Shown here piece by piece: positions 22,871-51,614 of a stretch of DNA of 51,614 nucleotides (the first letter of the stretch is position 1; every line of letters starts with the position of its first letter). This DNA comes from Chiloscyllium plagiosum (Eukaryota), in assembly GCF_004010195.1 (NCBI RefSeq), contig NC_057752.1, positions 5,447,223 through 5,498,836 on the forward strand, given 5' to 3'. The notes under the pieces are model-generated. The model worked only from the letters and a program-made list of their open reading frames with translations. It was not told the origin of the DNA and ran no database searches. The position numbers and the translations under genes are program-made.

Positions 22871-23027
22871 AGAAAGTGAGGTCTGTAGATGCTGGAGATC
22901 AGAGCTGAAAATGTGTTGCTGGAAAAGCGCAGCAGGTCAGGCAGCATCCAGGGAACAGGAGAATCGACGTTTCGGGCATAAGCCCTTCTTCAGGGCTTAT
23001 TCCTGAAACGTCGATTCTCCTGTTCCC
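22871..23027 (-). mobile_element. Short non-coding Penelope-derived insert with partial inverted repeat, hammerhead motif and 13-bp TSD
   Basis: TSD aagattctgaagg at 22858-22870 and 23028-23040. 23-bp inverted repeat at 22951-22973 / 23005-23027. Confidence 0.85.
22962..22996 (-). ncRNA. Minimal type-I hammerhead ribozyme motif
   Basis: Minus strand reads CUGAAGA-a-gggc-uuau-gccc-GAAA-C-GUC. Intact core, stem II and palindromic ACGU stem III; stem I is poor. Confidence 0.75.
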
Positions 23028-23877
23028 AAGATTCTGAAGGGGCTTGACAGAGTAGACGTTGAGAAGATGTTCCCAGTAGTTGGGGAATCTCAAACTAGAG
23101 GATGTAGTTCCAGAATGTGGAGAGAGATACAAAACTGAGATATGAAGGAATTTCTTGAAACTAGTGAATGTCTGGAATTTTCTCCCCGAGAGTTATACGG
23201 GCTAGATCACTGAAAGTATTTAGAGACCTGGGAGATTTTTGAAATATTGGCTGAATGGCCTACTCCTGCTCCTAATCCTTCTGTTCTTGGGTCTTGGGGC
23301 TAATATGCAAAACTTTAATGAAGGAAAGGTAGTTTGGATATTCCACCATGAGATGTTACAGGTGCATGTTCAACCATTTGCACAAAATCAGCCTGAATCA
23401 AAATGACGAGATGCCAGTTGCATTCTGTACTGGCTCAAATCTGAAATAACAACAGTTAATCTCTCCAGTGGCTCTTTTCTAATTTTGTTCATTTGAATCT
23501 AGGATTCCCTATTTGCATTCTAATTGCTGCAGCAAGTAAATGATTAGATCACAATGTCAAGTGCATATGACAGTTACTGCTGTGCACACATGTGAGGCAA
23601 TGCCTCTGAAAGTCTGGCCAATAGCAGTGGTGGCACCCTGGTCAGATCATTACCATCCCTGCAGAAATCTCAAATTTGAAAAACTAATCAGCCATTGTTG
23701 CAAACAACAGTTATGCTTGAGACAGGTAACTACTGCTGAGCACCCTGCAGTAGTTCTTGTTTCCAAGTTCTGGTTGACCTATAATCAAAGATGAAGAAAT
23801 TTAATAATTGTAAGAGTATTGGCTCCTGAAAAGCCTGTCATTGTACAAACAGGAGCAAGTTACTTTTTCTTTTGTGT

Positions 23878-24168
23878 AGAATCCCAACAACGTGGAAAGA
23901 GGTCATTCGGCCTGTTGAGTCCACACCGACCATCTGAAGAGCATCCTATCCAGATCCACACACACACCCCCCTGCATACATGCATTCACCCCCCCACACA
24001 GACACACATCCCACCCCACACACACAGACAGACGTGCGCGCACACACTCTCACTCACTCTCTCAGCCTGACCCCCCACTTCCCACAGCTAACCTGTACAT
24101 CCCTGGACACTATGGGCAACTTAGCATGGCCAATCCACCTTAGCCTGCATATCTTTGGACTGTGGATC
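23878..24168 (-). mobile_element. HE1-like SINE 3' half containing a (CA)n/C-rich microsatellite expansion (about 23955-24060)
   Basis: Tail agaatccca...aagaggtcattcggcc and ctatgggcaacttagcatggccaatccacc flank a CA-rich tract. Confidence 0.7.
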
Positions 24169-24813
24169 TTCTGGATGCTTTTCTGTTTACCAATTGTGTC
24201 ACCTTGCCTGAAATTGGCTATGGTGGATTAATGGAGTTCTTTCAGTGGGAGATTGTCTGTTTTGAGAACTTAATGACATGCAAGGAATGCTCCCCTAGTA
24301 TTTTGTCTTTTAAGCTGTGAAACTAGAGTGCAGAGTTATTAATAAACCAAACCAGTGTTTGGAAAAAGTATGTAATATTTTCTATTAGAAATTGCCCTGA
24401 CTGAAATTCTACTTCAAAAAGGTTAATCTTTAAAATGGGAATGTAATACATGGTAAATGTACCGTTTGAGTCAAGTTGCAATGAAACTGAAATCTCTTTG
24501 GACAGGATTGTGCTTAATTGCAGAATAAAATGATTTTTTTTAAGAAGTAAGGAAGGTTCTAATGACCATCCTAGTATCAGTCAGAAGTATTGTTGAATTA
24601 CCATAACTGAATTAATAACTGGGATGTTTTTCAGCTACATTTTAAAGTTGACATTTAATGGAATGTATCATATTGTCATGTTAAATTTAATTTCTAATCT
24701 GTAAGTGACATAATATATGGATCACTGATTTAATTTGAGAAACAGTTAAATGTCATGTACTTGCTTTATAGTACAATGCAAGGTAATGCTGTTTTTGCTG
24801 TACTTCTTCACAG

Positions 24814-24895
24814 ATCTGCTAACAACAGAATTGAAGAATATGGATATGTTGGCTTCTTTGCCCACACCACCGCACAACCAAAATGAGGAGCTAAG
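24814..24895 (+). CDS. KMT2D: KMT2D coding exon (approx. human exon 43), DLLTTELKNMDMLASLPTPPHNQNEEL(R/S)
   Basis: Acceptor cacAG and weak donor AG|GTTTTT. Conserved LPTPPHNQ. Phases 1 and 2 fit the neighbouring exons. Confidence 0.88.
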
Positions 24896-25504
24896 GTTTT
24901 TATTCACAACTTTCACTTGTTCTTTCAACTATTTTCCTGAAAACCCTGCCCTGCGTTTGGTGGACCTCTTCTCACGTGTGACATTTTACTGCTTGGCACA
25001 TAAAGATTACACTATTTCAACACAATAGAAGGTGGAAGACATAACTGTCAGTACGGTCCTAATAAAGGCATTTCACTTTTATTACCTCTAATAGACCCCT
25101 AAATTATTTTTGAGTAAATATCATTTTACTGAAAACTTGGAGACCAACAATAAGGCGACAGTTAGTTGGAAAATGCTGTTTTCGTAAGTTTTCAGTTTCC
25201 ATTGTTTTTACCTGAGTAGAGATTGCTTATTTAAAAAGGGAAACAACTTTTACATCTTCTATTTTTTGTTTTCAAATTGAATCAAAACAAGTTAGATTGT
25301 TAAACTTTAAACTTCACTGTGAAACAGCCAGAACACATTGATCTTTAATGAATGTGAAGATGGACTAAAATTGAAAAATAAGTTCAGAGACAGGATCTAG
25401 TAAAAAAAAAATTGCATTATAACATTTCTGCTTACAACCCAGAATATTACAGCAGTTTTAAATCCTCCCAAAAAAAAATTAAGTTGTAATTTCTTTCTCA
25501 ACAG

Positions 25505-25683
25505 TAGAGCAGAGATAGAAGAGGACCGACGCACACCGGACAGCATTGTGCTCGCATCCTCACCGGAAAGTGTGTTTGGGCAAGAAACATCCAGGTTTCC
25601 CTTGCTGACTGAAATTAAGGAAGAGTCAATGGACCGTGCCCTTTCTCCTGTGATTCCCATAATTCCAGGAGCTTGTATTCCAG
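25505..25683 (+). CDS. KMT2D: KMT2D coding exon (approx. human exon 44), AEIEEDRRTPDSIVLASSPESVFGQETSRFPLLTEIKEESMDRALSPVIPIIPGACIP
   Basis: CAG|TAG| tandem acceptor (start 25505 or 25508) and donor G|GTTAGT. Conserved PDSIV.ASSPES and DRALSPVIP. Confidence 0.9.
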
Positions 25684-26369
25684 GTTAGTTCAAGAAATTA
25701 ATCATTACCATTCAAGGAAGACTCACTCATGTAAAGCAGTGCTTGATGAAAGTGATGGATTGTCATCAGAGGGGTTTAGATTCTAATTTTGCTCTTTATA
25801 ATGTTTAATTCAAGGAAGTTGCATGTCATCCAGACTAAATGTTTAAACAAGCAAGGCTGATAATATACAAATGGTGGCGGGTTCAAGAGAGGTGGTAAAG
25901 AGACAAAGTTTGCTGTCAGTGTACATGCGTTTGGTTAGTGTTAATAAGGGGCAACATGGAGATGAGAGATAAGAGAGGGCCAAAGATGGAAAGCTTGGAT
26001 GTATTAGTGCAAGAATGCAATGAAAAGCCATTTCATGAGAGTCCGTGGCTTCGACTGGAGAGAGAGAGTGAACCATGCAAGGGCAGTCCACTCAGCTGGA
26101 CAGGTGGACCAGATGTGCTGGATGCAGGGTGGTGTAATTAATTGTGTCAGAGGTTGCAGACAATTTGCAAAAGCTGAGCAATAATGCACCATGGACATAG
26201 AGGACATTGTTAGTGATTTTTGACCTGCGGCATCTGTGTTGTGGCAGGAGCAGGCAGTTGTCAAATATGATCAGAGAAAGATGGGGCATATGAAGTGACA
26301 AGGATAGTGGTGATGGGCTAGTAGTGTCAAAAGACAGAAGGCTAAGGTGGACTTTTTGAAGCTCTTATT

Positions 26370-26955
26370 TATTCCATGAAATGTTGACTTTGCTGTCTGG
26401 GCCAACATTTGTAGCCCATCTGGAATTTATCAGTGAGATGATGATGAGCTGCTGCTTTGAACCACTAGTCAATTTGCTGTAGGGACACCCACGATGCTAA
26501 TAGGAAAGGAGTTCCAGCATTGTGCCTAGCAACAGTGAAGGAACTGGGATATATTTCCAAGTCAGAAAAGTGTGTGGCTTGGAGAAGAGCTTTCAGATGT
26601 TGTATTCCCATATATCTACAGCCCTGGTTCTTCTTGATGGTACTGGTCATGGGTTTGGAAGGTACTGTCTCAGGTGCCTTGTGAATTTCTGCACTGCATC
26701 TTGTAGTGCTGGTTGTTGAGGGAGCGAATGTTTGTGGATGCGGTGCTAGTCAAGCAGCTGCTTTGTCCTGGTTGGTGTCAAGCTGCTTGTATTGTTGAAG
26801 CTTCACTCATCCAGGCAAGCGGAGGGTATTCCATCATTCTCCTGATTTGTGCCTTGTACATGGTGGATGGGATTTGGGGAGACGAGAGGTGTTGCATGCT
26901 GCAGGATTCCTAGCCTCTGACCTGCTTTTGTAGTCACAGTTCTTATTCGGCTGGC
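26370..26955 (-). mobile_element. Decayed 3' fragment of the LINE family at 30600-32316
   Basis: Similar to 15690-16200 and to the reverse complement of 31780-32310. Confidence 0.7.
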
Positions 26956-29134
26956 CAAGTACAGTATCAGGTTGACGATGCACGTGCCAGAATGGCACTT
27001 GGGTGGTCAGCAGTTTCGGGAGGATAAGGTCAAAAAAGCAGGAGATGGCTCTCGTAGAAAAGATGGCTCCGGAGAGGCTATGGGGGAAGAGAGAAATTTA
27101 AAGAAGGATGTGTGTGAAGAGCAAAGGAAATGGAATTGTTAACTTGGAGGAGTATACATTGGGAGAGGTGTGGCAGAGGCAGCCAAGCAGAGGGTCATGA
27201 TGTTTGTCACTCATACGAGGATTAGGTGGGTTTGGAATGAGGAACTGAGATATGTGACTGTTGAAGGATATGGGCACGTTGTCAGGGATGAACTTGTATG
27301 TAATTGCGATAAAGAAAATAGAAAGAAAAGTGGTGGGATCAAGGAGATGACCAGTTAAATGGGTTGGACTTTCATGTTCCACAAAGGGAGAGTTGGTCAT
27401 TGGGAGCACCCTAGTGCAAAATAAATTTCTACAGCATTTTTTCATCTTGACCCTTTATCATGACCATTTCTGTGTTTCAGGTTTTTCTGCAACAAAGTTG
27501 AGAGTCTAATCCTACTTGTTTGAAGGTCACTTTTTTCTTTGTAATCTAAATTTAGTGTTAAATTTATTTGCGCTCTGTTTGAACCTTTGTCCTTCTCTTG
27601 GAATTTATTGCATGAAGTACTACTATTACGACACAGACAGACAGCCAAATCAAATCAGCCTTTCCACCTCTGTATTCGCAATACAGTAAAAATAAAACCT
27701 TCAAAGACCCTCAGAATTGACCCCAGTGGTTTCTAACCAGACTTTTAAATAACTAATCCCAGACTCTGAAGTAGTCAATTCTAGCCACCAGTTCTGTAGT
27801 TTAAACACAGTACTGAACAATTTATTAGTAATACAGTAACTTCAGCAGGAAGAAAAATAATCTAATTGATCTGTGCTTTAAACCCAACAGCCTTACTTTT
27901 CAGTCACATTCTGACACAGGACAAACAGACAAACACAGTTAAGAGATAAATAGAAGACTGGCCAGATTATTTAAGTGGTTTTCACGAAGTGTTGTTCCAT
28001 GGGCATAGATGGTTTCTTGGTTGAATTTCTGAAGCTGTCGATCAGGATCATCTTTTCAGTTCACTCAGATAAAGGCGGTAATATTTAGTTTACTACTGAG
28101 CTTCCAAGAGCTGCTCATGAGAGGTTAGACAGGGAGCTTTCAAACCTTCATGCTGTAGCGCCAACAGATTCCTTTTTTCACAGAAAACAGTCCAAAACTT
28201 AATTCAAACTCTGACCCTCCCTGACAGACTGACCGTCTCTTCCATGATATCCCAGTTAACATTCAACACCTGCTATCTTCTTGAGCATGAAGTCTTTTCC
28301 AGACATGCTGGAACCAATTCCCAGCTGCTGATCTTGTGAATAGCCGACTTCTGCTATCCGTTTAAATATAATGTTCTTCCCCAGTGACGAAGCATCTCCA
28401 GAACCTTTTGGTTAGGAACCAGCCTGCAATTAACTTCCAAGCCTTGCCTCATGAATGAATAAAAGCAATTTGATCTGTTTTCCTTTTCCATAGAAGCTGT
28501 TACCCAGTGTCTTAAAAATCATGTTTAGCTCACAGTTCCCAGTTCACAGCTCCAAACCAAAAATGAAAACAACACTAAAAACAATGGAAAAAATCAGCAA
28601 GGATTCCACTACTATTCTTATGGTCATCCTCATAGCAGTCAGAAGAGTTGTTGAATGACCAGAACTGAATTATAGGCTACATTTTAAATACCTATTGAAG
28701 TTGACGCCTGAATGACCAAACCCGTCCCGATTCTCACAATTTAATTGGAATTTAAATTATACTATAGCAATGATATAATGACCACTCTGTGGTGGATTTT
28801 TCTTGAGTTCTGGCCTTCCTTCACACAAGTCATCACCAAGCTAGGCCCCCTCTAGGGGATTACCATAATTAGTCTTGTTCCTTGGTCTGAGATAAAAATG
28901 TTGTTGACCAGCAAAAGTACCTCTGTACTGTGCAGGCAAAGGATGTCTTGTAGGTCACGTCCGAGCAACGTAACAATGTCTGATCAACACATCTTAAGTT
29001 TGGCCTTGCACTTATGATAATGAAGAATGCCAAAGGGCATGCCAGGAAGGGCACCAGGGGTACCTGAAAATGAGGTCTCAACCTGGTAAAGCTACAAAAC
29101 AAGACTGCAATTTGTGCCAATAGCATTAGCGGCA

Positions 29135-30585
29135 AGTGATAGACAGGATGTGGAAGTTCTGTGGAACTCTGGAACCTATGGATTGGAGGGTAGCTAATTT
29201 AAACCCACTATTTTAAAAAGGAGGTAGAAAGAAAATAAGGAATTGTAGACCGGTTAACCTGACGTCAGTAGTGGGGAAAATGCTAGAATTCATTATAAAA
29301 GATTTAGAGCACTTGGGAAACAGTGACAGGATTAGACAGTCAGCATGGATTTACGAAAGGGAAATCATGCTTTACACATCTTCTGGAATTTTTCAAAAAT
29401 GTGTCTAGAGTTGATCAGGGGAGCCAGTGGATGTGGTTTACTTGGAATTTCAGAACACTTTCAATGATGTCCCATATCAGAGATTAGCGTGTAAAATATA
29501 AGCACATGGGAGTGGGAGTAGTGTACTGACATGGATAGAGAACTAGCAGCAGACAGCAAACCGAATAGAAATAAATGTCTTTTTCCAAGTGGCAGGCAGT
29601 GAGTAGTAAGTACCACAAGGATCAGTACTTGGACCCCAGCTATTCACAAAATATATTAATGATTTAGATGAGGGAACTAAATGGAGTGTCTGCAAGTTTG
29701 CAGATGACACAAAGTTGAGTGGGAGGGTGAGCTGTGAGGAGGATGCAGAGATGCTTCAGTGTGACTTGGACAAGTTGAGTGGGTAAATGCAACGTAGATG
29801 AAATATAATGTGGATAAATATGAGGTTATCCACTTTGGTCGCAAAATCAGGAAGGCAGATTATTATCCAAATGGTGATAGATTGGGAAAGTGGGAGGTGC
29901 ATCAAGACCTGAATATCCTTGTACACCAGTCGCTGAAGGTAAACTTGTAAGTACAACAGGTGGTGAAGAAGGCAAGTGTATGTTGGCCTTCATAGCGAAC
30001 AGATTCATGTACAGGAGTTGGGGTGTCTTGCTGCAATTGTGCAGGGCCTTGCTGAGACTACGCCTATCATATTGTGTGCAGTTTTGGTCTCCTTAGGAAG
30101 AAGATGGGCAATCTGGTTATGGAGGGAGTGAATGACGATTTACCAGACTGATTCCTGGGGTAATATGACTGATGGATGAAGATGGATGGATCAGTTAGGA
30201 CTGCAATTTAGAAGAATGAGAGGGGATCTCATCGAAAGCTATAAAAGCCTAATGAGACTAGACAGGGTAAATGCAGGAAGGATGTTCCCCATGACTAGGA
30301 AGTCCAAAACTGGGGGCACAGTCCAAGAATAATGGGTAGGCTATTTAGGATTGAGTTGAGGAGAAATGTCTTCACCCAGAGAGTGGTGAGCTTATGGAAT
30401 TCTCTGTTACAGACAGTAGCTGAGGTCAAGCTATTGAAAGTGTTCAAGAGTTAGATATCATTTTTTGGGCTAAAGGAGATGGGGTGAAAGCAGGAACAGG
30501 GTACTGAATGGATGATCAACCATGATCATCATGAATGACAGAACAGGCTTAAAGAGCCAAGTGGCCTGCTGCTGCTCCAGTTTTA
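29135..30585 (+). mobile_element. Older CR1 LINE ORF2 RT region and 3' end
   Basis: ccacaaggatcagtacttggacc (PQGSVLGP), aagtttgcagatgacaca (KFADDT) and YCVQFWSP. Confidence 0.88.
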
Positions 30586-30599
30586 TTGCGTTTTTATTC

Positions 30600-32316
30600 C
30601 ACAACCAATGGATAACATTGGCGTTCTGCAGTCCTGCCAAATTCAACAATTGGTGGTGCAGAATTAAACAAATCACCGGAGGAGTACACTCTACAAACAT
30701 CCCCATCTTCCATGATTGGGAAGTCCAGCCCATCAGTAAAAGATGAGGCTGAAGTGTTTGTCACAATTTTTTGCCAACTTGATTCACTCCACATGAAATT
30801 TAAAAAGCAGCTGGTGTCAGAGTTCTGCAAAGGCTCTGGGCCCTGACAACATTCTGGCAATGGTACTGAAGATGTGTTCTCCCAAACTTTCTGTGCCCTA
30901 GCCCTTAACCAAGCTGTTACCAGCACAGTGACAACATTGGCACCTAGCAGGTAAAGTGGAAAATTGCCCAGTTATGCCCTGATCAAAAAGTAGACAAATC
31001 CAATGTGGCCAGGTGTTGCCCAATCTATCTCCTCTCAGTCAGTAAATTGATGAAAGGGGGCATCAACAGTATTATCGCACAGCACTTAACAATAACCTGT
31101 TCACTGCTTGGTTTGGGTTCTGCAAGGACTACTCTGCTTTTGACCTGATTACAGTCTTGGTTCAAACATGTACAAAAGAGCTGACCTCCAGAGGTGGTGA
31201 GAGTACTTTCCTTGACATCAAATTAGCATTTGTTTATATGTGTCATCAAGGGCCCCTATCAAAACTAGAATCAGTGGGAATTGGGTGGAAAATTATTTTG
31301 CTGGTTGGAATCATGACAGCACAGAGGAACATTGTTGTGGCTGTTGGAGGTCAGTCATCTCAGCTGCAGGACTTCTCTGATGTTCCTCAGGGAAGTGTGC
31401 TCAGACCAGTCATCCTCAACTGCTTCATCAATGATGTTCCTTCCATCATAAGGTCAGAAGTAGGAATGTTTGCTGATGATTGGACAATGTTCACCATTTG
31501 TGACTTCTCATGTACTGAAGCAGTCCATGCCCAAATGCAGCAAGACCTGGACAATATCCAGGTTTGGACTGGCAAGTTGCATTTGCGCCACACAAGTGCG
31601 TGGGTTGCCAGTCTCCAACAAGAGAATCTAACCATTGCATCTTGATACTCAGTGGCAATACCATCACTGAAACCCCCACAATCAAAATCCTGTGGGGTCA
31701 ACATTTACCAGAAACTGAACTGGTCTATCTATATAAATACTATGACTATAAGAGCAGGTCAGAGGCTGAGAATTTTGAAGCGAGTGCTTTGCCTTCTGAT
31801 TCCCCAAAGCATGCCTGCCATCTACAAGGTACAAGTCAGGAATGTGGTGGAATTCACCCCACTTGCCTGGATGAGTGCCACTCCAACAACATTCAGGAAG
31901 CTTGACAAAACATCCACTTGATTGCCACCTTGTCTGCAAGAATTCATTCTCTCCACCACCCATGCACAGTGGCAGCAGTGTATTCGATCTATAAGATGCA
32001 CTATAAGAATTCACAAAGTCTCCTCAGACAGCAGCTTCTAAACCCACAACCACTCGCATCTAGAAGGTCAAGGGCAACCAATATATGGGAATGCTATCAC
32101 CTGCAAGTTGCCCTCCAAGCCATTCACCAACCTGACTTGGAAATGTATTGCATTGCCCAGATCCTGTTACTCCCTCCTTAGTGGCATTATGCAACTACCT
32201 AAAGCAAATGGACTGTTGCAGTTTAAGAAAGCAGCTTGCCACCATTTACTTGAGGGTAACTAGGGATGGGCAATAAATGCTGGCCCAGCCCGTAATGCGC
32301 ATATTCCATGAATGAA
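30600..32316 (+). mobile_element. LINE (CR1/L2 superfamily, family distinct from the main CR1), decayed RT and 3' tail
   Basis: FLDIKLAF, VPQGSVLRPVILNCFIND, GMFADD, MQQDLDNIQVW and IYKVQVRNVVEF; tail ...ccatgaatgaat. Confidence 0.88.
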
Positions 32317-32485
32317 TTTTTTTTAAAGACGTGGAGTGCATCTCTGTTCAAATAAATAAATATAACCTTGTGAATGGAGTAATCTTTTACAATTTAACAA
32401 AACAAGCCATGTTATTTGATCCGTACACTCTTGAGTTAGTTTGAATTACTAATTTGCACTTTTTATTCATTGTTTTTTCCCTTAG

Positions 32486-32628
32486 TATTTCCGGATGCAA
32501 AGCCATTTGTAAATATAGAGCCACTTGTGGAAAATACTGAGAAGGGTGGGTCTTTGCCTGAGCCATGGAAGAGTGGTAAAGGAAACCAAGTTGCAGTCAC
32601 ACTGGATGTCTCAGGAGCAGCTGCCAAG
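32486..32628 (+). CDS. KMT2D: KMT2D coding exon (approx. human exon 45), VFPDAKPFVNIEPLVENTEKGGSLPEPWKSGKGNQVAVTLDVSGAAAK
   Basis: Acceptor ccttAG and donor AAG|GTAGCT. VFPDxKP...W..GKG..V...VS.AAAK matches KMT2D. Confidence 0.88.
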
Positions 32629-32637
32629 GTAGCTATA

Positions 32638-33180
32638 TCATATACTGTGAAAGTCCTGCCCTGGTTTGTCTTTCCAAAATGTAACACCTCGCATTTATCT
32701 AAATGAAACTCCCATCTTCCATTCTTCGGCCCACTGGCTTAGTTGATCAAGATCCGTTGTACTCTGAGATAACCTCCTTCACTGTCCAATGTGCAATCAA
32801 TTTTAGTGTCATCTGCAAATTTGCTGACCATGCCTCCAATATTCTCATCCAAATTATTTATAGAAGTGATGACCAACAGTGGATGCAGCACATCGCTGGT
32901 CACAGGCCTTCAGTCTGAGCAACTCTCTCCTACCACCTCTGTCTCGTACCATCAAGCCAGTTTTGTATCCAGTTGGCAAGCTCTCCTTAAATCCCATGTG
33001 ATCTAACCTTACTAACCAGTCTACCATGCAGAACTTCGTCGAAGGCCTTGCTAAAGTCCATGTAGACAATGTCTCCCGCTCTGCCTCCATCTGTCGTCTT
33101 GGTCACCTCTTCAAAACATTCCACATTTGTGCAACATGATTTCCCACACACAAAATCATGCTGACTATCCTTAAACAATC
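32638..33180 (-). mobile_element. Antisense CR1 RT fragment beginning about 10 nt after an exon donor
   Basis: Minus strand DSQHDFVCGKSC, YMDFSKAFDEVLHGRLVSKVRSHGI and LHFGKTNQGRTFTV. Confidence 0.88.
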
Positions 33181-33249
33181 CTGATTAGTAGAAAAACTAA
33201 TGAGCTTGTTTTCAATAACAATGCATTTCTACTGTGTTTTTTTATATAG

Positions 33250-33391
33250 GACATAAACAGAATGATGACAACTTTTGCTCAGTTGCTTCAGATGAAGATC
33301 CCAACTTCTTATGAGGTTACATCTGTTCCTGACAGTCCACATTCTTTTTTACCTGATGGGAAAAAAACCATCTTGGATGCTCCAGATCAAG
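33250..33391 (+). CDS. KMT2D: KMT2D coding exon (approx. human exon 46), DINRMMTTFAQLLQMKIPTSYEVTSVPDSPHSFLPDGKKTILDAPDQ
   Basis: Acceptor tatAG after a T tract and donor G|GTAAGT. LL.MKIP.SYEV motif. Confidence 0.88.
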
Positions 33392-35081
33392 GTAAGTGAA
33401 AGGTTGTACCTTTCTTGGAGGAAGTCATCTATACCAGTCACCAGGAATCCGTTTAAAATAGGTTGATGTGCCCTTTCAGAATGGTGTTCCTTGCAGACTA
33501 TCTTGAATGCAGCACTCAACCTTTTAAGAATGAAATAAAAACAAAGTGCTAGCAATACTCAGGTGAGGCAGCATCCGTGAAGAGAGAAACAAAGTTAATG
33601 TTTAAGTCAATGGCCTTACATCAACATTTTCTGTTTTGACTTCAGGTTTTGAGCTTTTATTTCAGATTGAGATATTGTCTTTGGACGGTATGAGATCTAA
33701 CTTGCCTATAAGTCAAAAGCAATGGTCCAAGGACATGATCCATGTTCTTCTTAGGTTTTTCCCTGATTTTGTCCCAGCACCTTGTAAGTTGAAGTGCTAA
33801 TGTATACAAATTTGCCCTTTCCATTCTGTATTTTCACTAAGATTAGATCTTATTATGCCTCGGGATTCAAATGAAATTGCCATCTTGTAGCACTTTGTCC
33901 ATCTGCAAGTATTCTCTCACGAATTCATGAAAAAATGCTATTTGCATCTTCGCAGGCAACATACAAATTTTACCGATTATGCATTTGACCTCAGTGCCCT
34001 CAAAAGAAAATTGTGGAGAATATTTTCCCAAGCTTTCCACATCCAAAAAGATGGTGAAACAAATATTTATTTCAGAATACAGCATTTTAAAAAAAAATAT
34101 AGAAATTGTAGCACTGAAACAGACCTTTAAGCCCAGCCAGTCTTTGTTGCTGTTATCCTCCATGTAAACAGTAGCCTGAAACTCTCATGCTTGCTCAATC
34201 CCCATATGTCCATGCCACCTATTGAATTTGTTCTCTTTCAGGGATAATATCCTTGTGAAAGTTGTTAATTCCATATGTGTGGTGACTATATTGTGTGCCA
34301 GTGTGCAACTGATTCCTATCACTGATATTTGTATTGTCAAGTCTACAAACTAATGCATATTTTTTTCAAAACATTGGCTGATCTGCTGACCCCAGTAAGT
34401 GAGTGCCCTCAACTGTGCTGTTCACAAATTCTTTCAAGGTGGAAATGAGATAAATGAGGAAGAACATGCTTGCCCAAAGCTGTGATTGTAATTTTGATTC
34501 TTAACTGAATTTCAACATTAAACAAAAGAACTCTGCTGGAAATCCAAAACAAAATCACAAATTGCTGGAAAAACACGTCTGGCAGCATCTGTGGAGAGAA
34601 AGCAGAGTTAACATTTTTGTTCCTGTGACCCTTCTTTCAAACTAAAGCTCGTACATGAATGAGAGCTGGTGCAAGGCCACATGACACAGCAGCAACAACA
34701 GCAGCTCCCCCCCACGCCCCCCCCCCAAACAAAAGAAAGAGCCGCAAGAAAATGCGGTCCAACAATTATTCCATAGGGCCACCATTCCCTTTAAGATACA
34801 TAGAGTCATAGAGATGTACAACATGGAAACAGACCCTTCGGTCCAACCCGTCCATGCCGACCAGATATCTGCATGCCTCACTGCAGCAATCTAATGCTGT
34901 ATGCCGCACAGACAAAGAATAATTAGAAGGAACATTGGCTGTTAGTGTTGTGTAGTACAGTGTCCCAATTGCTGTCTCTTTGTGGGGTCGAGGATAGAAC
35001 TTGTTGAAACAAAGACTTGCCAACATTTTCAACCAGTTTGGGATGTTAGTTGGTCATTACTACTTTCTGGATTTCTTGTAG

Positions 35082-35215
35082 TGGGTTCCAAAGAAGAACC
35101 AATGGATCTGGAGAAACTGGTGCTGGAAAAACATAATTGGTTCAAACAGTATGATGTCTCATTACCAGGCTCTACTGTTAAAGCATCAGGAAAAGAGCTT
35201 GCAACTGTCACGCCG
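35082..35215 (+). CDS. KMT2D: KMT2D coding exon (approx. human exon 47), VGSKEEPMDLEKLVLEKHNWFKQYDVSLPGSTVKASGKELATVTP
   Basis: Acceptor ttgtAG and donor CCG|GTATGT. W.KQ.D..LPG.T.K motif. Phases 1 and 0 fit. Confidence 0.8.
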
Positions 35216-37197: not shown

Positions 37198-37404
37198 GTA
37201 AGATCAGTTTGTGCTTGTCAGGGTAATTTTTTTTCACTGGACAATAGAATTATAATTATTTTCAACACTTTGTAATTCTGTGTAAATTTCACGTAGGTAA
37301 TGCTGTTGCTTTGTCCTTCTAATATAATATTGAACTTTATGTAGACTAAGTACAATGGACACCCCACCGCCCCGCCCCAACCACCACCACTGCCGTTCCA
37401 GTAG

Positions 37405-39358: not shown

Positions 39359-39985
39359 GAATGGCTGCCTCCCGTGCTGTTCTATGATTTTAATGTTGCG
39401 AGCTAATTATTGTTCTGGTAATTTGGAAATATTATTCTTCCTCTTTAGTTATTTATGGAAATTAAACTAGTAATTTCAGTCATTACCCTGAATAGTCAGA
39501 TATCTCTTCATATATCTCTATGCTTCACAATGCAGTTTTATTTTAGACTACACTATTAGTTCTGTTTCTCATATCATTGACAGTTTATACACAAAGTCTA
39601 AATTGTAATTTATGATTTGCTTTTGTCTTAAACTGAAGTCTTGCTGACTAATTACTATTGAAGCAAAACTTAAATGGATTTTTTGCTCTTGACAAGTCAC
39701 CAAAGCTATCTTGAGTTTTGACAAACTATATCTTAACTTGGTCAAATGTGTTTGAGGTTACTTATCCCATTATCCAAGGTTTGGCAAAATGTTAGGTCTT
39801 CATTATATACTGCTGTAACCCCTCTCAATGGAATTCCAAAGCTAAGCACTTATCCAAAGGAACAAGCAGAGCCTTTTTATCGTGCTGAGTTCTTAATGAT
39901 AATGTGTTTCAGAGGTTTCCCTTGGATGTCAGAAACCTAACTGTGTGTAGTTAAACACTATTCAAAGCATAAAGATGATCTCTGG

Positions 39986-40592
39986 TGTTACAGACCAGAC
40001 TAAACCCCCTCGAAATATATTAAGATAATGTAGACCTTACATTTTTCTTATTTTAAAGATCAGTGTAAGGCATTCCGTTCCAGATGCAATTCAATTGATC
40101 AAACTATTTGACATTATGCATGACACTTTATTTTTGCACAACAGTTAAAATACAGACAAAATAAAAATAAAAGAATTGGCTTAACTGTAACTCTTCTGAA
40201 ATTCTTAACAAAATAATAGATATATTGACGCCTACTAATTAACTGTTCCTTTATAGTAACGTCCCATAAACACGCCCTTCGTAAAGGCAGATTTAGTAAA
40301 ACAGATTGAAGAGAACCCCAGCTTTTAGCTGTAACAGAGGTATACGAGCTTCCACATTCAGCTTCAAGACCCCAGCAACTGCAGAAAGCCTAAACTAAAA
40401 ATCCTGGTTCTGCGGTAGCTCGACACGACCTATTTAGGTTGCTTCTATTATTCTAATGTTTTTTAAAAACACCAAGGCCTCTTGAGCTGTTTACTTTATT
40501 GGCTTGAGTAGGCTGCTCGGTACCTCTGTCTCAACCTTTCTTCACTTTTAAAAAAAATGCTAAATACACCTTAAAACCATAGTATTGTCACG
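39986..40592. mobile_element. Possible solo LTR (about 600 bp)
   Basis: Starts TGTTAC and ends GTCAC(G). Imperfect flanking repeat ctctgg/ctcaga. Minus-strand AATAAA near 40127. Confidence 0.35.
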
Positions 40593-41119
40593 CTCAGACT
40601 TAACCAGTGATTTTATATTTCCTCTTTGTGAGTCTTCAATAGTCTCGCAGAAAATTTAAAAACAAACTCACTCTGTCAAGACAAATTGATTTGTCCAAGT
40701 TGTGGCCTTGGAGCTTGTGCTTATGACTTTGTAGACAAGTTAGTGATGCTTTATGTAGATGACACTTTGTCAGTACAGCGAAGGTTTATCCCACAATTTT
40801 TCAGTCCATTGTGTTACTGATCTCTGGACAATGGTACATTGTGTGCTTCCCTGGAAGTTGTTATGCTCATATACCTCCAAGTGACTCACTTAAGAGCAAC
40901 CTTAGCAGAGACTTAGGAACTAGTTGGTTGCTATTTCTACACATCAAGAGTTGGTGTGTTCACCACACAGTAGGAGTAAATAGCTTGACCTTGTTTTGGC
41001 AGGGAATGGTTGAGGAGATACATAAGCACTCTATGTTTGGTGTTTTGTAATTCTAATATTTCTGCAGAGCCCCGACAACATCCAAGCTATGTTTTCCATT
41101 TATTCCCTATATTTCTCAG

Positions 41120-41256
41120 GTGTTTGGAACCGAATTCTTGAACCAATTGTGCAACTGCGGAAAGAAGCGGAAATGTTACGACTTTTTCCTGATTACATTA
41201 AAGGAGAGGACATGTTTGGACTCACTATTCATGCTGTTCTAAGGATTGCAGAGTCG
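41120..41256 (+). CDS. KMT2D: KMT2D coding exon (approx. human exon 49), FYRC: GVWNRILEPIVQLRKEAEMLRLFPDYIKGEDMFGLTIHAVLRIAES
   Basis: Acceptor tctcAG and donor TCG|GTAAGA; 137 bp. Confidence 0.95.
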
Positions 41257-41485
41257 GTAAGAAGAAAGGCGCCAAGGAGAGCAAGACCTGCAAAAAAAAT
41301 GAATTTAATAGATTACAGGTTTTAAAATGTACATACTTAAGCCATGTCCAACCTGTAACTTAATGTAAGATTTAAATTCAGAAATATTTTGAATGGCTAT
41401 GCAGTTATCCCCCATCATGAAAAAGGCTATTAAACATGATTAAGTTTTGGATGTAGGTTTGCTCGCTGAGCTGGAAGGTTCATTT

Positions 41486-41525
41486 CCAGACGTTTCGTTA
41501 CCCTACTAGGTAACATCTTCAGTGG
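41486..41525 (-). ncRNA. Minimal hammerhead ribozyme motif (antisense copy)
   Basis: Minus strand reads cca-CUGAAGA-u-guuacc-uaguag-gguaac-GAAA-C-GUC-ugg. Confidence 0.85.
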
Positions 41526-42385
41526 GCCTCAGGCGAAGCAATGCTGAAAGTTCCTGCTTTCTATTTATACGTTTGGGTTTCTTTGGATTGGTGATGTCAT
41601 TTCCTGTGGTGAAGTCACTTCCTGTTCCTTTTCTCAGGGGGTGGTAAATGGGATCTAACTCAATGTCTTTGTTAAGTGTGTTCCGGTTGGAATGCCATGC
41701 TTCTAGGAATTCCCGTGCGTGTCTTTGTTTGGCTCGTCCTAGGATGGATGTGTTGTCCCAGTCGAAGTGGTGTCCTTCCTCATCTGTATCTAAAGATACT
41801 AGTGAGAGAGGTTGATGTCTTTTTGTGGCTAGTTGATGTTCAAGTATCCTGGTGGCTAGTTTTCTGCCTGTTTGTCCAATGTAGTGTTTGTTACAGTCCT
41901 TGCATGGTATTTTGTAAATGACGTTAGTTTTGCTCGTCTTTATAGGATTTTTCAAGTTCATTAGCTGCTGTTTTAGTGTGTTGGTGGGTTTGTGGGCTAC
42001 CATGATGCCAAGGGGTCTGCGTAGTCTGGCAGTGACAAACACTACATTGGACAAACAGGCAGAAAATTAGCCACCAGGATACATGGACACCAACTAGCCA
42101 CAAAAAGACATCAACCTCTCTCACTAGTATCCTTAGATACAGATTAGGAAGGACACCACTTCAACTGGGGCAACACATCCATCCTAGGACGAGCCAAACA
42201 AAGACATGCACGGGAATTCCTAGAAGCATGGCATTCCAACCGGAACACACTCAACAAAGACATTGAGTTAGACCCCATCTACCTGAGAAAAGGAACAGGA
42301 ACTGACTTCACCACAGGAAATGACATCACCACCCCAAACATATAAATTAGAAAGCAGGAATTTTCGGCATTGCTTCGCCTGAGGC

Positions 42386-42425
42386 CCACTGAAGATGTTA
42401 CCTAGTAGGGTAACGAAACGTCTGG
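42386..42425 (+). ncRNA. Minimal hammerhead ribozyme motif, sense to the KMT2D pre-mRNA
   Basis: Stem I cca/ugg, CUGAAGA at 42389-42395, stem II guuacc/gguaac, GAAA at 42415-42418 and cleavage triplet GUC at 42420-42422. Confidence 0.85.
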
Positions 42426-42639
42426 AAATGAACCTTCCAGCTCAGCGAGCAAACCTACATCTGAAACCTCAACCTGAGCTACAAATCTTCTAAAAGCTCG
42501 TTAACATGGTCAAGTGGGGCAAACATTGTTTACAATCATCTTCGCTTGAAGATTTATAAAATAAAGGTTGATTTATTTTCCAAACTTAGTGATTAATCTC
42601 AACATACCATCAGTAATACGCTTATATACATAGCACCTG

Positions 42640-43150
42640 TACCATCATCCGACTCCTCTCATGTGAGCATTGTAAAACATGATATGGCATTGAGCCACAA
42701 GGAGATAAATAACCAAGGTTAAATGACCAAAAGCTTGGTCAAAGAGGTATTTTTGGGGGGTTGTGGAATTCGAGGACTCAGAGAGATGTGGGGGTGTGGG
42801 AATTTTGAAATTATGATATTGCTGCACTGGGAGCTGGTATTGGTCAGGAAGCACCAGCATGATTGGTGAAAGGCTTGAGTTAAGACAAGAGGAGCAAAGT
42901 TTTAAGTAAAAAAAAAACATGGAATGAGTGCATCTGCTAGGAGCGGGTTGGAATAATCAAATCTAGTGATATCAAAGGTATTCTTGAGGGATTCAGCCAC
43001 AGATGAGCAGAGGTAAGGGCAAAGTTGTTGTGGGAGCAAGCAGTCTCAGTGATGCTGAAACACATTGGATCAGGTATAATGCCAAGGTTTCAAGTGTTCT
43101 GATTTAGTCTCAAGATGGTTGGATTCGGTTGCTCAAGAACAGAGTTTGGA
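42640..43150 (-). mobile_element. Very old LINE (L2-like) 3' remnant
   Basis: Minus strand acctctttgaccaagcttttggtca...tgtggctcaatg resembles L2 3' ends; no intact protein motif is visible. Confidence 0.4.
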
Positions 43151-43972
43151 GTGACGGCAAGGTAAATCTTGTAAGAGTATGATTTGCTGAAATGGGAGTT
43201 AAAAGTAGAGGGGGCCAGAAATTAGCCTGTTGGTTAGTGAGCTGAGACCTCACGGTGTATCTAAACTATATGCATACACAACAAGGTGCTACATAATAGG
43301 TTTAAGTTTCATAAATAGATACAAATGTGTCTAAAGCACAGCAAAATAAATTGTGTATAGGCATGAAATTGTTTGTCAAGAGCTCAGTCGCTGCTCTGGA
43401 TTATTGAGACAAGTAAAGGGCTGTGCAGAACTGATGGGATTTGTTGTATAGATAAAAGGTAATAGATGATGCAAAAGTTGTCCACTGCTTGGTGAAAATG
43501 ATGTGTAATTTGGGAATAGTCCTAAAATGGGCAATTGGTGTCAACAAAGCAATGGAATGAGGATTCAGGTTTTCATTTGCTATCACTAGCCATCGAGCCG
43601 ATAGTGCTGTACTCTGGGTGGCTTTCTCTGAGTTGTGCAGTGATGTTCCTAACAGCTGATCTATTCCTGCACACTCAGGATGAACCAGGCTTCAAAGTTG
43701 TGACCTATTGAATTGAGTGGGCGTTCTGAGATAGGTGTGGGATTGAAGGTTATGGCGTGAATTATCTGCTCGAAGACTGAGCAGGAAGTATTCATTTAGC
43801 CAATAGTGAGTTGCACGAAACTTTGGCTCATCCACGATCAGTCAGATAAGCAATGGGTAGCATGGTGACAGCTGTGGCGCAAGAATTATAGCAGATGAAT
43901 TTTGAAATTTGCTGTCTGCAAGTTAGGGGGAAGAAAGGCATTTACCCAATTATTTTATGGTGGGGGTTTCTT

Positions 43973-44297
43973 CACTCATTCACAGAGTGAGGATGTCTCT
44001 GGCATTTACTGCCCATCCTAATTTTTCAGAGGGCAGTTAAGAGTCAACCACATTGCTGTGGGTCTGGAGTCACATATAGGCCAGACCAAGTGAGGGTGGC
44101 TGTTTCCTTCCCTAAAGGACATCAGTGAACCAGATGGGTTTTTCTGGCAATCAACAATGGATTCATGGTCATTGTTAGACTTTTTTTTAATTACTAAATT
44201 CAAATTCCATCATCTGGCATGGCGGGATTTGAACCCGGATTCCCAGAACAATATCTGGATCTTTTAATTAAGCAATAACACCACTAGGCCATCATCT
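43973..44297 (-). mobile_element. tRNA-derived SINE, second family (paralog of 13812-14163)
   Basis: Collinear, highly similar sequence (gggcagttaagagtcaa.cacattgctgtgg...ccactaggccatc). Confidence 0.88.
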
Positions 44298-44376
44298 CCC
44301 ACTATTTGTAATCACCTTTTTAGTTAAAATACATTTTAGAAATTAGTTTTGTGAATTAATTTTGATTTCTCTCCAG

Positions 44377-44507
44377 TTGCCAGGTGTGGAGAGTTGTCAG
44401 AACTATATATTCAGGTATGGTCGGCACCCGCTTATGGAGCTCCCACTAGCTGTCAATCCAACAGGCTGTGCCCGATCTGAGCCGAAAATTATGACTCACT
44501 ACAAACG
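44377..44507 (+). CDS. KMT2D: KMT2D coding exon (approx. human exon 50): end of FYRC and WDR5-binding WIN motif, LPGVESCQNYIFRYGRHPLMELPLAVNPTGCARSEPKIMTHYK(R)
   Basis: Acceptor ctccAG and donor CG|GTGGGT; 131 bp. GCARSE WIN motif. Confidence 0.96.
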
Positions 44508-45050
44508 GTGGGTACAGGAAAAATGAAAGTGACTTGCTTGTGATAACTTTAAACTTATAAATTTTTTAAAGGCATTTTATTATCAAGTGATCTGTCACAA
44601 GATTTAAACTATGAATTTAACTGCCTTTTATATTTGAATATAATATCGTGCCTTTTATGTAAAATGTGATATTTTGATTCCTGCTGAGGAATCGACAGAT
44701 AGAAAACTGCTTTGGAGAAATATTCCATGGTAGCTGGCAAGTTCAGAAAGCCAAGACTGAATAATTTAAACTTGTAGCATTCTAGCAGTAGATTTACTGC
44801 AAAGAACTAAGAGGTCAAAAAAAGCCCAACTTGAAACACTAAGTGATGCAATATAACTTTATCATTCAACTGTAGCTTTATCATTTTTTGCCAGCCTATA
44901 TAAAGGTATAGATAGAAAGCACTAATACCTCAAGCATATTTTAAGTCTTTAGATCAGGTAATGACAATCATAACGGGCTTGGTTCTGGGGAGCCTTTTCA
45001 TTTTTGATCCAAGTACAGATATTAATCTTTTTCTCCGACGTACTTAACAG

Positions 45051-45219
45051 GCCGCACACCTTGAACAGCACCAGCACATCAAAAGCATTTCAGAGTACAG
45101 TAACTGGAGAAATTAACACTCCCTACAGCAAGCAGTTTGTTCACTCCAAATCTTCTCAGTACCGCCGACTGAAAACCGAGTGGAAAAATAATGTTTACCT
45201 GGCTCGATCTCGAATACAG
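45051..45219 (+). CDS. KMT2D: KMT2D coding exon, pre-SET: PHTLNSTSTSKAFQSTVTGEINTPYSKQFVHSKSSQYRRLKTEWKNNVYLARSRIQ
   Basis: Acceptor aacAG and donor CAG|GTGAGT; 169 bp. Confidence 0.96.
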
Positions 45220-46695
45220 GTGAGTCACTATCAGCAAGATGTAAAATGTCACTAATTATAACAGATTTTGTACTCTGAAATCAAATTAGTTGCTTGGTTT
45301 TTTTTTATTTATTTGCCATCCTCCAGCTTAGCATTGGTAGGTGAAGGGAAGACTAAAATTCAATTTGCTAGGAACGTCGTTTCAAGATATTCAGTTTTCT
45401 AATAATCTCACTTATTAATAGATTTCATTCATTCATCATATTCTCAGCTTTTCTGCTTGTGTCGATGCTTGTGTTCCTTATATATTGAAATCTACAGGGA
45501 AAGCCCTTCCTTTGGAATTTTTCTGTTTTGTCTCTAAGATAGTAGTGCTTTGTAGCTTATAGTGGCTTTAATTAGTTCTAGTCATAGGTTGACAGTTCTC
45601 TGTCACCTTCTCAACCAGTAGTGCACCTTGTTTTTGGTATTTTGATCTTGGCTCATTCATGCTTCTATCTTGGCCATTTTATTTCTAATTGAAGTGGCCT
45701 CCTGGCTTCAGGATGTGTATTAATTGTTATTAATTATTCTCTGCAGCCAATAACCATGATACCTGCATTTTTTTTGACCCACTTTTAATTTCAGAGTCTT
45801 AAACCCTGTCCAAAGTCAGCAAAACGATTCTTTGGTCTGCAGAAAAATTGCCAAATATGTCTAATCTCAGTTCTTGTACACAATTTTTGCATGATACCTA
45901 CGTTTGTCAATGTAAGTATCTAAAGCAATTGGCGAAAGAGAATGTTTTCAAGGATGATCCTGGCATAGAGAAACTTCTGGGGCATTATTCCTTGCTGGTT
46001 GATTTGGCTAGATTGAAGATGAAATATTGTCCTGTGGCCTTTGCCATCAGTAATTTTATAATTCTTCAGCTTCTGGTACCTCTGGACATGAGTGTCAATT
46101 TAAAATCAGACATGGTTTCCTTCAAACGGCAAGGATAGCAATCCTCAACTTCTGGGGTAGCTCTGTCACAAAAAAACTGGTAGATCAAATGGCCGTCATA
46201 AATTGACAAGAGCCATTTGAGCTCAAGTTATTTTCAAAGAGAGAGATCTTGATTGCAATACAAAGATGAGACTGTATCTGAAACTAGTCTAAATTGTCAG
46301 CTGTTTCTGTCAACCAAACAAAACTGACTGTGGACTGCTACATGTGTAAAGTTTTCATGTAGCAAAAGAAACGTATGACTTGATATCTAGAATGAAATTT
46401 GAGAATGATCACATCCATTTAGCTTGTTCACTTGATGACCCATGGCACAAGTACATGGAGCTTAAATTACACTTGAATGAGGGATGTGCTACACTGAATG
46501 TTTTAACATCTATCTGCTTTGATATCCTGGGACTTGAGATCTCCTCACTGAAAAATTATGGTGTATCCACAGGTTAAACCCGATGATACTCTGTCATGAG
46601 TAATGGAACCTGGACAGGAGTAGTTGAATTCTAAGGACTGTTTTAGAATTAATTTCAATGTTTCTTCTACCTTTGGTTATTTTTCTGCTCCATAG

Positions 46696-46812
46696 GGTCT
46701 GGGTCTCTACGCAGCCAAAGACCTTGAGAAGCACACAATGGTAATTGAATACATAGGGACAATCATTCGCAATGAGGTTGCAAACCGCAGGGAGAAATTG
46801 TACGAGACTCAG
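46696..46812 (+). CDS. KMT2D: KMT2D coding exon, SET domain N-terminal part: GLGLYAAKDLEKHTMVIEYIGTIIRNEVANRREKLYETQ
   Basis: Acceptor catAG and donor CAG|GTATGG; 117 bp. AAKDLEK and NRREK are KMT2D-type. The remaining SET exons were not found in the window. Confidence 0.96.
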
Positions 46813-46828
46813 GTATGGATTAACCATG

Positions 46829-47032
46829 GTAAAAACAATCACTGCAGATGCTGGAAACCAGATTCTGGATTAGTGGTGCTGGAAGAGCACAGCAGTTCAG
46901 GCAGCATCCAAGGAGCTTTGAAAGGCTCACTGCCTTTATTCTTGATGAAGGACTCTTGTCCGAAACGTCGATTTCAAAGCTCCTTGGATGCTGCCTGAAC
47001 TGCTGTGCTCTTCCAGCACCACTAATCCAGAA
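46829..47032. mobile_element. Palindromic non-coding Penelope-derived insert with 15-bp TSD
   Basis: TSD tatggattaaccatg at 46814-46828 and 47033-47047. Perfect 62-bp inverted repeat at 46862-46923 / 46972-47033. Terminal sequence is similar to 22871-23027. Confidence 0.9.
46938..46973 (+). ncRNA. Minimal hammerhead motif with a C3U core variant, in the loop of the 62-bp hairpin
   Basis: Reads auuc-UUGAUGA-a-ggac-ucuu-gucc-GAAA-C-GUC-gauu. Confidence 0.65.
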
Positions 47033-49949: not shown

Positions 49950-50715
49950 ATGTTGGATAACGGGGACCCAGCAGATGTGTATCTAGAATTTCAAAAGGCA
50001 TTCAACAAGGTGCCACACAAAAGGCTGCTGCATAAGATAAAGATGCGGGGCATTATGGGTCATGTATTAGCATGGATAGAGGATTGGTTGACTAACAGGA
50101 AGTAAAGTCTGGGGATAAATGAGTGCATTCCTGGTTGGCAATCAGTTACTAGTGGTGTGCCTCAGAGATCAGTCTTGGGACCGCAATTATTCACAATTTA
50201 CGTAGATGATTTGGAGTTGGGGACAAGTTTGCAGACGACACTAAGATGAGTGGTAAAGCAAAGTGTGCAGAGGACTGTGGAACTTTGTAGAAGGACGTAG
50301 TTTAAGTGAGTGAGCAACGGTCTGGCAGATGAAATACAATGTAATAAATGTGAAGTCATCCATTTTGGTAGGAATACCAGTTAAAAGGACGAGTACTTGA
50401 ATGTTAAAAATTGCAGCACGCTGCTGTGCAGAGGGACCTGTGTGTTCTTGTTCATGAATCACAGAAGGTTAGTCTGCAGATGCAACATATAATTAAGGCA
50501 GCATTTTGTCCTTCATTGCTACCGGAATTGAGTTTAAAAGCAGGGAGGGTTATGTTGCAGCTGTATAGGGTGCTGGTGAGGCCACACAGTACTGTGTGCA
50601 GTTTTGGTCTCCTGACTTGAGAAAGGATGTACTGGCACTAGAGGGGGTGCAGAGGAGGTTCCCTCGGTTGATTCCAGAGGTGAAGGGGTTGGCTTATGAA
50701 GAGAGATTGAGTAGA
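49950..50715 (+). mobile_element. CR1 LINE RT fragment
   Basis: YLEFQKAFNKVPH, SGVPQRSVLGP, KFADD and LYRVLVRPH. Confidence 0.85.
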
Positions 50716-51158
50716 TGGACAGGACTGGCAGCTTAACATTCCAGGATACAAATGCTACAGAAAGGGAGGCAAGAGAGGAGGGGGAGTGGTGTTTTTGATA
50801 AGGGATAACATTACAGCTGTACTAAGGGAGGATATTCCCAGAAATACATCCAGGGATGTTATTTGGGTGGAACTGAGAAATAAAAAGGGATGATCACCTT
50901 ATTGGGATTGCATTATAGACCCCTTAATAGTCAGAGAGAAATTGAGAAACAAATTTGTCAGATTTCAGTTGCCTGTAAGAATAATACGGTGGTTATTGAA
51001 AGGGATTTTAATTTTCCAAACATAGATTGGGACTGCTATAGTGTTAAGGGTTTAGATGGAGAGGAATTTGTTAAATGTGTGCAAGAAAATTTTCTGATTC
51101 GGTATGTGGATGTACCTACTAGAGAAGGTGCAAAACTTGACCTACTCTTGGGAAATAA
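50716..51158 (+). mobile_element. CR1 LINE endonuclease-region fragment, cut by the downstream Penelope insertions
   Basis: YRPLNS...DFNFPNIDW...YVDVPTREGAKLDLLLGNK. Confidence 0.85.
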
Positions 51159-51159
51159 G

Positions 51160-51293
51160 TTTAAAATCACACAACACCATGTTATAGTCCAACAGGTTTA
51201 ATTGGAAGCACACTAGCTTTCGGAGCGTCGCTCCTTCATCAGGTGATAGTGGAGGGCTCAATCTTAACACAGAATTTATAGCAAAAAGTTACA
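51160..51293 (-). mobile_element. Penelope-like terminal fragment with hammerhead motif (51211-51245)
   Basis: Minus strand reads cac-CUGAUGA-a-ggagc-gac-gcucc-GAAA-G-CUA-gug, with palindromic AGCU. Confidence 0.8.
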
Positions 51294-51614
51294 GTTGTTG
51301 TGGTTCTGTTCGCCGAGCTGGAAGTTTTTGTTGCAAACGTTTCGTCCCCTGGCTAGGCGACATCATCAGTGCTTGGGAGCCTCCTGCGAAGTGCTTCTTT
51401 GATGTTTCCTCCGGTGTTCATAGTGGTCTGTCCCTGCCGCTTCCGGTTGTCAGTTTCAGCTGTACGCTGTAGTGGTTGGTATATTGGGTCCAGGTCGATG
51501 TGTTTGTTGATGGAGTTTGTGGATGAATGCCATGCCTCTAGGAATTCCCTGGCTGTTCTCTGTCTGGCTTGACCTGTGATAGTAGTGTTGTCCCAGTCGA
51601 ATTCATGTTGCTAG
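51294..51614 (-). mobile_element. Penelope-like element 3' end: GIY-YIG C-terminus and hammerhead motif (51333-51372); runs off the window
   Basis: Minus strand QHEFDWDNTTITGQARQRTAREFLEAWHSSTNSINKHIDLDPIYQPL, followed by gca-CUGAUGA-u-gucgccu-agcc-aggggac-GAAA-C-GUU-ugc. Confidence 0.88.

Follow-up and report, generated by a model that had tools for sequence, protein, structure and literature searches.

Minimal hammerhead motifs of truncated insertions in the introns of a shark KMT2D-type gene are probably inert passengers

In Chiloscyllium plagiosum, introns towards the 3' end of a KMT2D-type methyltransferase gene contain six minimal hammerhead ribozyme (min-HHR) motifs, in a window of 51,614 nt that is the whole stretch of DNA analysed here (GCF_004010195.1, NC_057752.1, positions 5,447,223-5,498,836 of the forward strand). 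The motifs are carried by five insertions, E1 to E5, that fall into three sequence families: E1 with E3, E2 with E5, and E4. All five insertions are truncated; three of the motifs lie directly after the end of a Penelope-type endonuclease frame, and the other three are likely Penelope-derived. Judged by their sequence features, the six are new members of the min-HHR class. In this gene the motifs appear to be inert passengers, a reading given a probability of about 0.87, and splicing of the KMT2D pre-mRNA probably proceeds without any cut by them.

All six sites have a YUGANGA core, a stem II, a GAAA, a 4-nt palindrome and an NUH triplet. C3 is present in five of the six cores, with U3 in E3, and GAAA and U16.1-H17 are found in every motif. 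Stem II is 4-7 bp long throughout, with G10.1-C11.1 as the first pair and one unpaired nucleotide after A9. The palindrome (the 15.1-16.1 segment) is ACGU in five motifs and AGCU in one, and stem III is 4 bp in all five homodimer models. Stem I is 3 bp in E4, E5 and the two motifs of E2 (E2a and E2b), 2 bp in E3 (46942) and 1 bp in E1 (22993). The original prediction, made from the sequence letters, had the core, GAAA and NUH triplet right at all six places, as well as the constant 4-nt palindrome. Its statement that every stem II pairs fails at the E5 motif (51369, minus strand), whose fourth pair is a G·G mismatch, and its stem I pairing stands for the four 3-bp motifs but not for those at 46942 and 22993. 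The count also needs amending, since the motifs at 41486 (minus) and 42386 (plus) are identical in sequence and sit in the two arms of one inverted insertion.

A strict descriptor, written beforehand and consisting of the core, a stem II of at least 4 bp and a stem I of at least 3 bp, recovered three of the six motifs (41489-41522 minus, 42389-42422 plus and 51214-51242 minus), whereas 200 dinucleotide shuffles gave 0.015 matches on average. A loose descriptor without stem I, written after the six motifs were known, found exactly these six, against one match each in 2 of 500 shuffles (mean 0.004). A MAFFT alignment of the six left the cores unaligned and was not used for covariation.

According to the exon map all six motifs are intronic, lying between the exons at ~21663-21731 and ~24815-24896, between those at 41120-41256 and 44377-44506, and after 46812. 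KMT2D is encoded on the plus strand, and only the motifs at 42389 (E2b) and 46942 (E3) are in the sense orientation, while four of the six are antisense; this 2:4 split among the six window motifs is not significant (p 0.69). What the original prediction implied about the pre-mRNA of an essential gene is not supported: all copies are intronic, but only two are sense copies, and both are predicted to misfold.

E2b is the only intact-looking sense copy. In a 311-nt context its stem I has a predicted pairing probability of 0.0, and with the inverted arm included all of its pairs fall to 0.0. For E3 the stem I probability is 0.007, and in the predicted fold the core strand and the strand that holds the cut site are paired with each other. 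The E1 motif gives pair probabilities of 0.0 for both stem I and stem II, alone and in context. For all eight pairs modelled, the best cofold is more stable than the double hammerhead by 4.4-22 kcal/mol. No stem I is possible between E2b and E3; E2b faces its own upstream inverted copy, and the window offers it no compatible partner on the same strand. Since four copies are antisense, E2b is predicted to be sequestered, E3 to be mispaired, and the two sense copies can form no stem I together, the pre-mRNA is likely left uncut. C3U, the change found in the E3 core, weakens cleavage. The literature search found no paper on the effect of C3U.

The copies may have arisen by endonuclease-primed reverse transcription, which would often leave a tail on one side together with a second copy, inverted and truncated at its 5' end. 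Cutting in the parent element would require either a strand-swapped dimer, formed through the 4-nt palindrome, or the help of the element's protein. In KMT2D, four copies are on the wrong strand, E2b would be paired with the inverted arm upstream of it and the core of E3 would be mispaired. In poly(A) reads of run X21, which carries the same species label, there is no pile-up of read starts or ends at the cut site of any motif, although this is a weak test. Element-sense reads exceed antisense reads ~3-5.5 fold over all five motifs covered.

Several points weigh against the view that the motifs are inert. Modelled alone, E2b folds both stems, with a stem I probability of 0.74-0.85, and the folding is an equilibrium calculation without co-transcriptional kinetics, proteins or Mg2+. 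From run X21, 5728 of 12,955,460 reads were placed, and only 176 of these were at least 99% alike, nearly all coming from other copies of the families. Intronic single-copy depth in this run is ~0, and its oligo-dT library would lose short cut products. The ribozyme of PAc, a Poseidon element of Anolis, did cut once protein was added (Frangieh et al. 2024, PMC11167929). As to origin, E1, E3 and E4 adjoin no reading frame in a tblastn search of the window with four proteins of Penelope-like elements (PLEs).

E2 (41445..42500) is one inverted insertion of Penelope/Poseidon type whose arms, minus at ~41445-42035 and plus at ~42036-42500, are 93-95% identical, with a tail of ~34 nt on the plus arm only. 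Its target-site duplication is only degenerate, with a longest exact match of 6 nt. In both arms the end of a GIY-YIG frame is followed by the hammerhead, and the two frame ends have 73% and 67% identity to the protein P0001 (tblastn). The reading-frame 3' end at 41506..42066 (minus) encodes a predicted GIY-YIG endonuclease with a CxxC between GIY and YIG, the Pfam GIY-YIG match (E 0.0034) being below the curated cut-off. This frame is 73% identical to a Stegostoma protein, the best matches of its product come from Stegostoma, Chiloscyllium and Hemiscyllium, which makes a carpet shark the probable host, and many of 29 homologues carry RVT_1. The E2a hammerhead (41486..41525, minus) is antisense to KMT2D and has a 3-bp stem I, a 7-bp stem II and a GUC triplet; E2b (42386..42425, plus) is identical to it. 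A contig from a related species, organism B, begins only ~23 nt inside the E2 tail.

E5 (51296..51614, minus), a second 3' end of Penelope/Poseidon type, runs off the end of the window and has 73-76% DNA identity to E2. Its frame at 51353-51610 (minus) encodes the C-terminal part of a GIY-YIG domain, with 71 of 84 residues identical to the protein P0002; within the window the GIY-YIG motif itself occurs only in E2. The E5 hammerhead (51333..51372, minus, antisense) has a 3-bp stem I, six of seven pairs in stem II and a GUU triplet. In both E2 and E5 the stop codon of the endonuclease frame lies in loop II of the hammerhead, and an ATG at core position A9 starts similar short frames. E2 is without an upstream CX2-5CxxC linker, which together with the layout suggests that E2 and E5 belong to the Poseidon clade. 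In E2a (41560-41570, minus), E2b (42340-42350, plus) and E4 (51275-51285, minus) the core is preceded, at a distance of some tens of bases, by a TATAAA box, which could be part of a terminal-repeat promoter.

E3 (46829..47032, plus) is a 204-bp fold-back insertion with 69-bp arms, of which only the inverted one carries a tail (34 nt); it is flanked by a 15-bp target-site duplication (46814-46828 and 47033-47047). It begins 16 nt past the splice donor of the SET exon. The site is empty in organism B, where a contig joins 46813 to 47033. The E3 hammerhead (46940..46971, plus, sense to KMT2D) has a stem I of 2 bp, and in its core U3 faces G8. E1 (22871..23027, minus), of the same family with 80% identity to E3 over 80 nt, is a 157-bp fold-back insertion in which a short inverted 5' piece is followed by a repeat end with a tail; its target-site duplication is 13 bp (22858-22870 and 23028-23040) and its hairpin has a folding energy of -67.2 kcal/mol (z -11.65). 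In its hammerhead (22965..22994, minus, antisense) the core and the stem II sequence are present and stem I is cut to 1 bp by the inversion. The 13- and 15-bp duplications and the empty site show that these are ordinary, lineage-specific insertions. Inversion, one-sided tail and target-site duplication are all found in E3, inversion and duplication in E1, and none of them was seen for E4.

Some side observations concern this family. E3 puts a 69-bp hairpin into the pre-mRNA, and the contig match still stops at 46812, continuing outside the window. Two more decayed relatives, without an intact core, lie at 33559-33623 and 34562-34596 (both minus; nhmmer E ~0.004). The family pattern had no matches in metagenome and viral contigs. 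Two microRNA families that Rfam placed on the E1 and E3 hairpins, below gathering scores, were rejected as fold-back artefacts.

E4 (51160..51295, minus) is the 5'-truncated repeat end of a third family, situated between a CR1-type remnant and E5 and linked to no reading frame. Reads of its family extend upstream past 51295, where E5 abuts. The E4 hammerhead (51211..51245, minus, antisense) has a 3-bp stem I, a 5-bp stem II, the AGCU palindrome and a CUA triplet. The E4 pattern was found at two metagenome loci and in no prokaryote genomes; the two relatives, L001 and L002 from marine-metagenome contigs, have the same core and stem II with a stem I of 5 bp.

The families appear to be abundant. 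In DNA run X10 of a related species, the summed contig depth over the repeats is 0.5-2.3 million, against ~12-24 in most single-copy bins, which is consistent with very abundant families although it is not a copy number. This bears out the original prediction of a large population of such ribozymes, the summed contig depth over the repeats being ~10^4-10^5 times that of the single-copy flanks (again not a copy number). The further claim that they are minimal type-I hammerheads from several Penelope-type families is likewise supported, by the GIY-YIG link for three of the six motifs and by Penelope-type anatomy for two more. No head-to-tail tandem units with a hammerhead, and no adjacent same-strand copies of one family, were found in the window.

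That the motifs are chance matches is hardly conceivable. It would fit the Rfam search, which found no hammerhead at E<=5, and the folding of four of the five distinct monomers, which is not clearly better than that of shuffles (z -0.04 to -1.68). The shuffle counts and the element context refute it, since the motifs have a fixed place after GIY-YIG frames and the same core recurs with a longer stem I in L001 and L002. A loose core pattern hit 120 viral loci, of which 17 have a stem II and none an adjacent stem I of more than 2 bp, and these were set aside. In the 17 (including L040, L087, L095, L105 and L116) stem II pairs, and several share a similar upstream stretch; they may be hammerheads of another topology. 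A different alternative concerns only E1/E3 and E4, which might be short non-autonomous families, retrozyme- or SINE-like, and not ends of autonomous Penelope elements. Their lengths of 136-204 bp and the lack of an adjoining reading frame in the window agree with this, as do the polyadenylation of E4-family RNA at a fixed place and the wide distribution of retrozyme monomers, reported also from one chondrichthyan in a preprint (bioRxiv 10.64898/2026.07.22.740005). This alternative is nevertheless unlikely, since no tandem units are found in the window, E4 is truncated at a point where family reads run on upstream, and the fold-back with a one-sided tail is Penelope anatomy (PMC8557442). Even if it held, the origin would be the same in a variant form, as the preprint derives such elements from Penelope terminal repeats.

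The remaining alternative is that slow cutting of the KMT2D pre-mRNA by a sense copy, E2b or E3, tunes the output of the gene, the copy acting in trans as a dimer with the abundant RNA of its family or with the help of the element's protein. In its favour, E2b is intact and, modelled by itself, forms both stems, and element-sense family RNA is present in excess over antisense, as given above. The protein-assisted cleavage of PAc (PMC11167929) and the conserved intronic hammerheads known in amniotes (PMC6155905) also speak for it. On the other side, the inverted arm of E2 precedes E2b in the transcript and would, by prediction, sequester it, E3 has C3U and is missing from the related species, the dimer fold is not favoured, and the weak test by read ends gave no pile-up. 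Low-rate cutting is therefore considered very unlikely, and the motifs are better read as inert passengers of KMT2D.

E4 has a feature of its own, a poly(A) signal directly behind its hammerhead. ATTAAA (51202-51197, minus) lies 12 nt past the predicted cut, and a GU-rich tract lies 3' of the poly(A) sites. The poly(A) addition sites are at 51185 and 51182 (minus), where family-level reads of run X21 have poly-T loose ends (424 and 523, respectively), and a further 151 poly-T reads come from a subfamily with AATAAA; the depth at 51209 is 1684. From the hexamer to the start of the tails there are 12-15 nt, and from the predicted hammerhead cut ~30 nt. L001 and L002 have AATAAA at the corresponding place, and no hexamer of this type lies within 110 nt of any of the other five motifs. 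There is no A-run at the E4 poly(A) sites in the window, nor in the best-supported loose ends of runs X10 and X16, although A-tailed genomic copies elsewhere are possible. With 150-nt reads and loose parts of ~67-69 nt, many of the poly-T reads would span an uncut ribozyme.

It is conceivable, if distinctly doubtful, that the E4 terminal repeat is a module of ribozyme and poly(A) signal, in which cutting would remove the tail, and that its very many copies seed shark transcripts with poly(A) sites having a built-in off switch gated by dimer formation or protein. The copy in the window is antisense, and so should not terminate KMT2D transcripts. The poly(A) signal could by itself give an intronic strand bias of the E4 family without any cleavage, and the site behind the hammerhead thus confounds a test of cleavage by intronic strand bias. 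For Penelope-type elements, no report of a functioning poly(A) signal behind a hammerhead came up in the literature searched, which includes term searches of PMC2377424 and PMC8557442; subscription papers and supplements were mostly outside reach and may already hold it. Poly(A) tails on transcripts of a Chlamys element are in print (PMC8557442). The E4 site gives a practical starting point for asking which part Penelope hammerheads play in the life cycle of the RNA.

The host gene is represented by the 3' part of a KMT2D-type gene, with a mapped exon span of 6930..46812 (plus) based on a tblastn exon map with five homologues, Pfam domains and GT..AG joints. PHD, FYRN, FYRC and SET are encoded by plus-strand exons of the KMT2 family (Pfam). 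Among solved structures the SET exon matches KMT2D best (E 2.7e-19; KMT2C E 1.2e-18), and the middle exons are matched in tblastn by a paddlefish protein named KMT2D. The exon preceding the SET exon matches KMT2C slightly better than KMT2D. On these searches KMT2D is the likelier name within the KMT2 family, though not a certain one. At 7638-13466 (plus) lies a very large exon rich in glutamine, with an open frame of 1942 codons, which holds a 39-bp (13-residue) coding repeat from ~9300 to past 10700, with ~49 offsets in register; a giant glutamine-rich exon is a KMT2D trait.

Splicing at the GT..AG joints 44506-45050 and 45217-46694 was observed in runs X5 and X16. The spliced contig exits the window after 46812, so that the last intron extends beyond the window end, and the last SET exons are outside the window. 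The same introns are filled with many remnants of CR1/L2-type LINEs (1875-4220, 37542-39355, 50884-51159 and others), seen as RVT_1 and endonuclease matches and as repeats. By eye, positions 17150-18250 (minus) resemble the end of a Neptune-type endonuclease in an advanced state of decay, including a run of residues like CxCxxxxC and the decayed end of a repeat. This was not confirmed by Pfam or by a profile search; the latter, with 17401-17721 (minus), returned one unrelated Olduvai-domain protein, and no connection of the 17.2-kb stretch with E1/E3 was seen by nhmmer.

Motifs of this kind, their occurrence as opposite-strand pairs and their location in introns are already in print. As described by Cervera & de la Pena 2014 (PMC4209133), min-HHRs lie in the pseudo-LTRs of metazoan PLEs, reach thousands of copies in the genomes of fish, coelacanth and frog, and occur as single truncated copies and as opposite-strand pairs; they showed no cleavage as monomers and low cleavage as dimers. 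The main text of that paper names no shark. Stem I is at most 3 bp in the window as against 4-5 bp in the min-HHRs of that paper, and E3 has U3 with G8 where the paper has a covarying U3-A8.

The inverted 5'-truncated copies and one-sided tails of 30-40 bp are typical of endonuclease-bearing PLEs as described by Craig et al. 2021 (PMC8557442), who give a fold-back anatomy like that of E1, E2 and E3 and a CxxC between GIY and YIG like that of E2. The lack of an upstream CX2-5CxxC linker in E2 fits Penelope/Poseidon in the same source. PAc (PMC11167929) resembles the insertions in that its start codon stands where stem II begins and its cut follows 26 nt on (in E2 it is predicted 28 nt from the A of the ATG), in its 30-40-nt tail, and in having no RNA-seq reads that end at the cut site. 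Unlike PAc, the window has only dead 3' fragments and no tandem full-length unit, and its ribozymes are predicted.

Non-LTR retrozymes of animals, as described by Li et al. 2026 (bioRxiv 10.64898/2026.07.22.740005), have type-I hammerheads derived from Penelope terminal repeats, and are present in one chondrichthyan. The Xenopus copies are 42-44% intronic, and cleavage was seen in one of nine dimer elements. Retrozymes are defined there by head-to-tail tandem units, of which the window has none, although the preprint's shark families may be the same as those in the window. The hammerhead in the 3' UTR of Clec2, as reviewed in PMC6765202, cuts just upstream of the polyadenylation signal, as is predicted for the E4 family. 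The Clec2 ribozyme is discontinuous, belongs to a mammalian host gene and has been shown to be active, whereas that of E4 is a predicted ribozyme in the repeat of a mobile element. With the six motifs, a class known since 2014 gains examples from a shark, and the copies would be harmless in an essential gene through their wrong strand, their fold-back partners and the loss of stem I.

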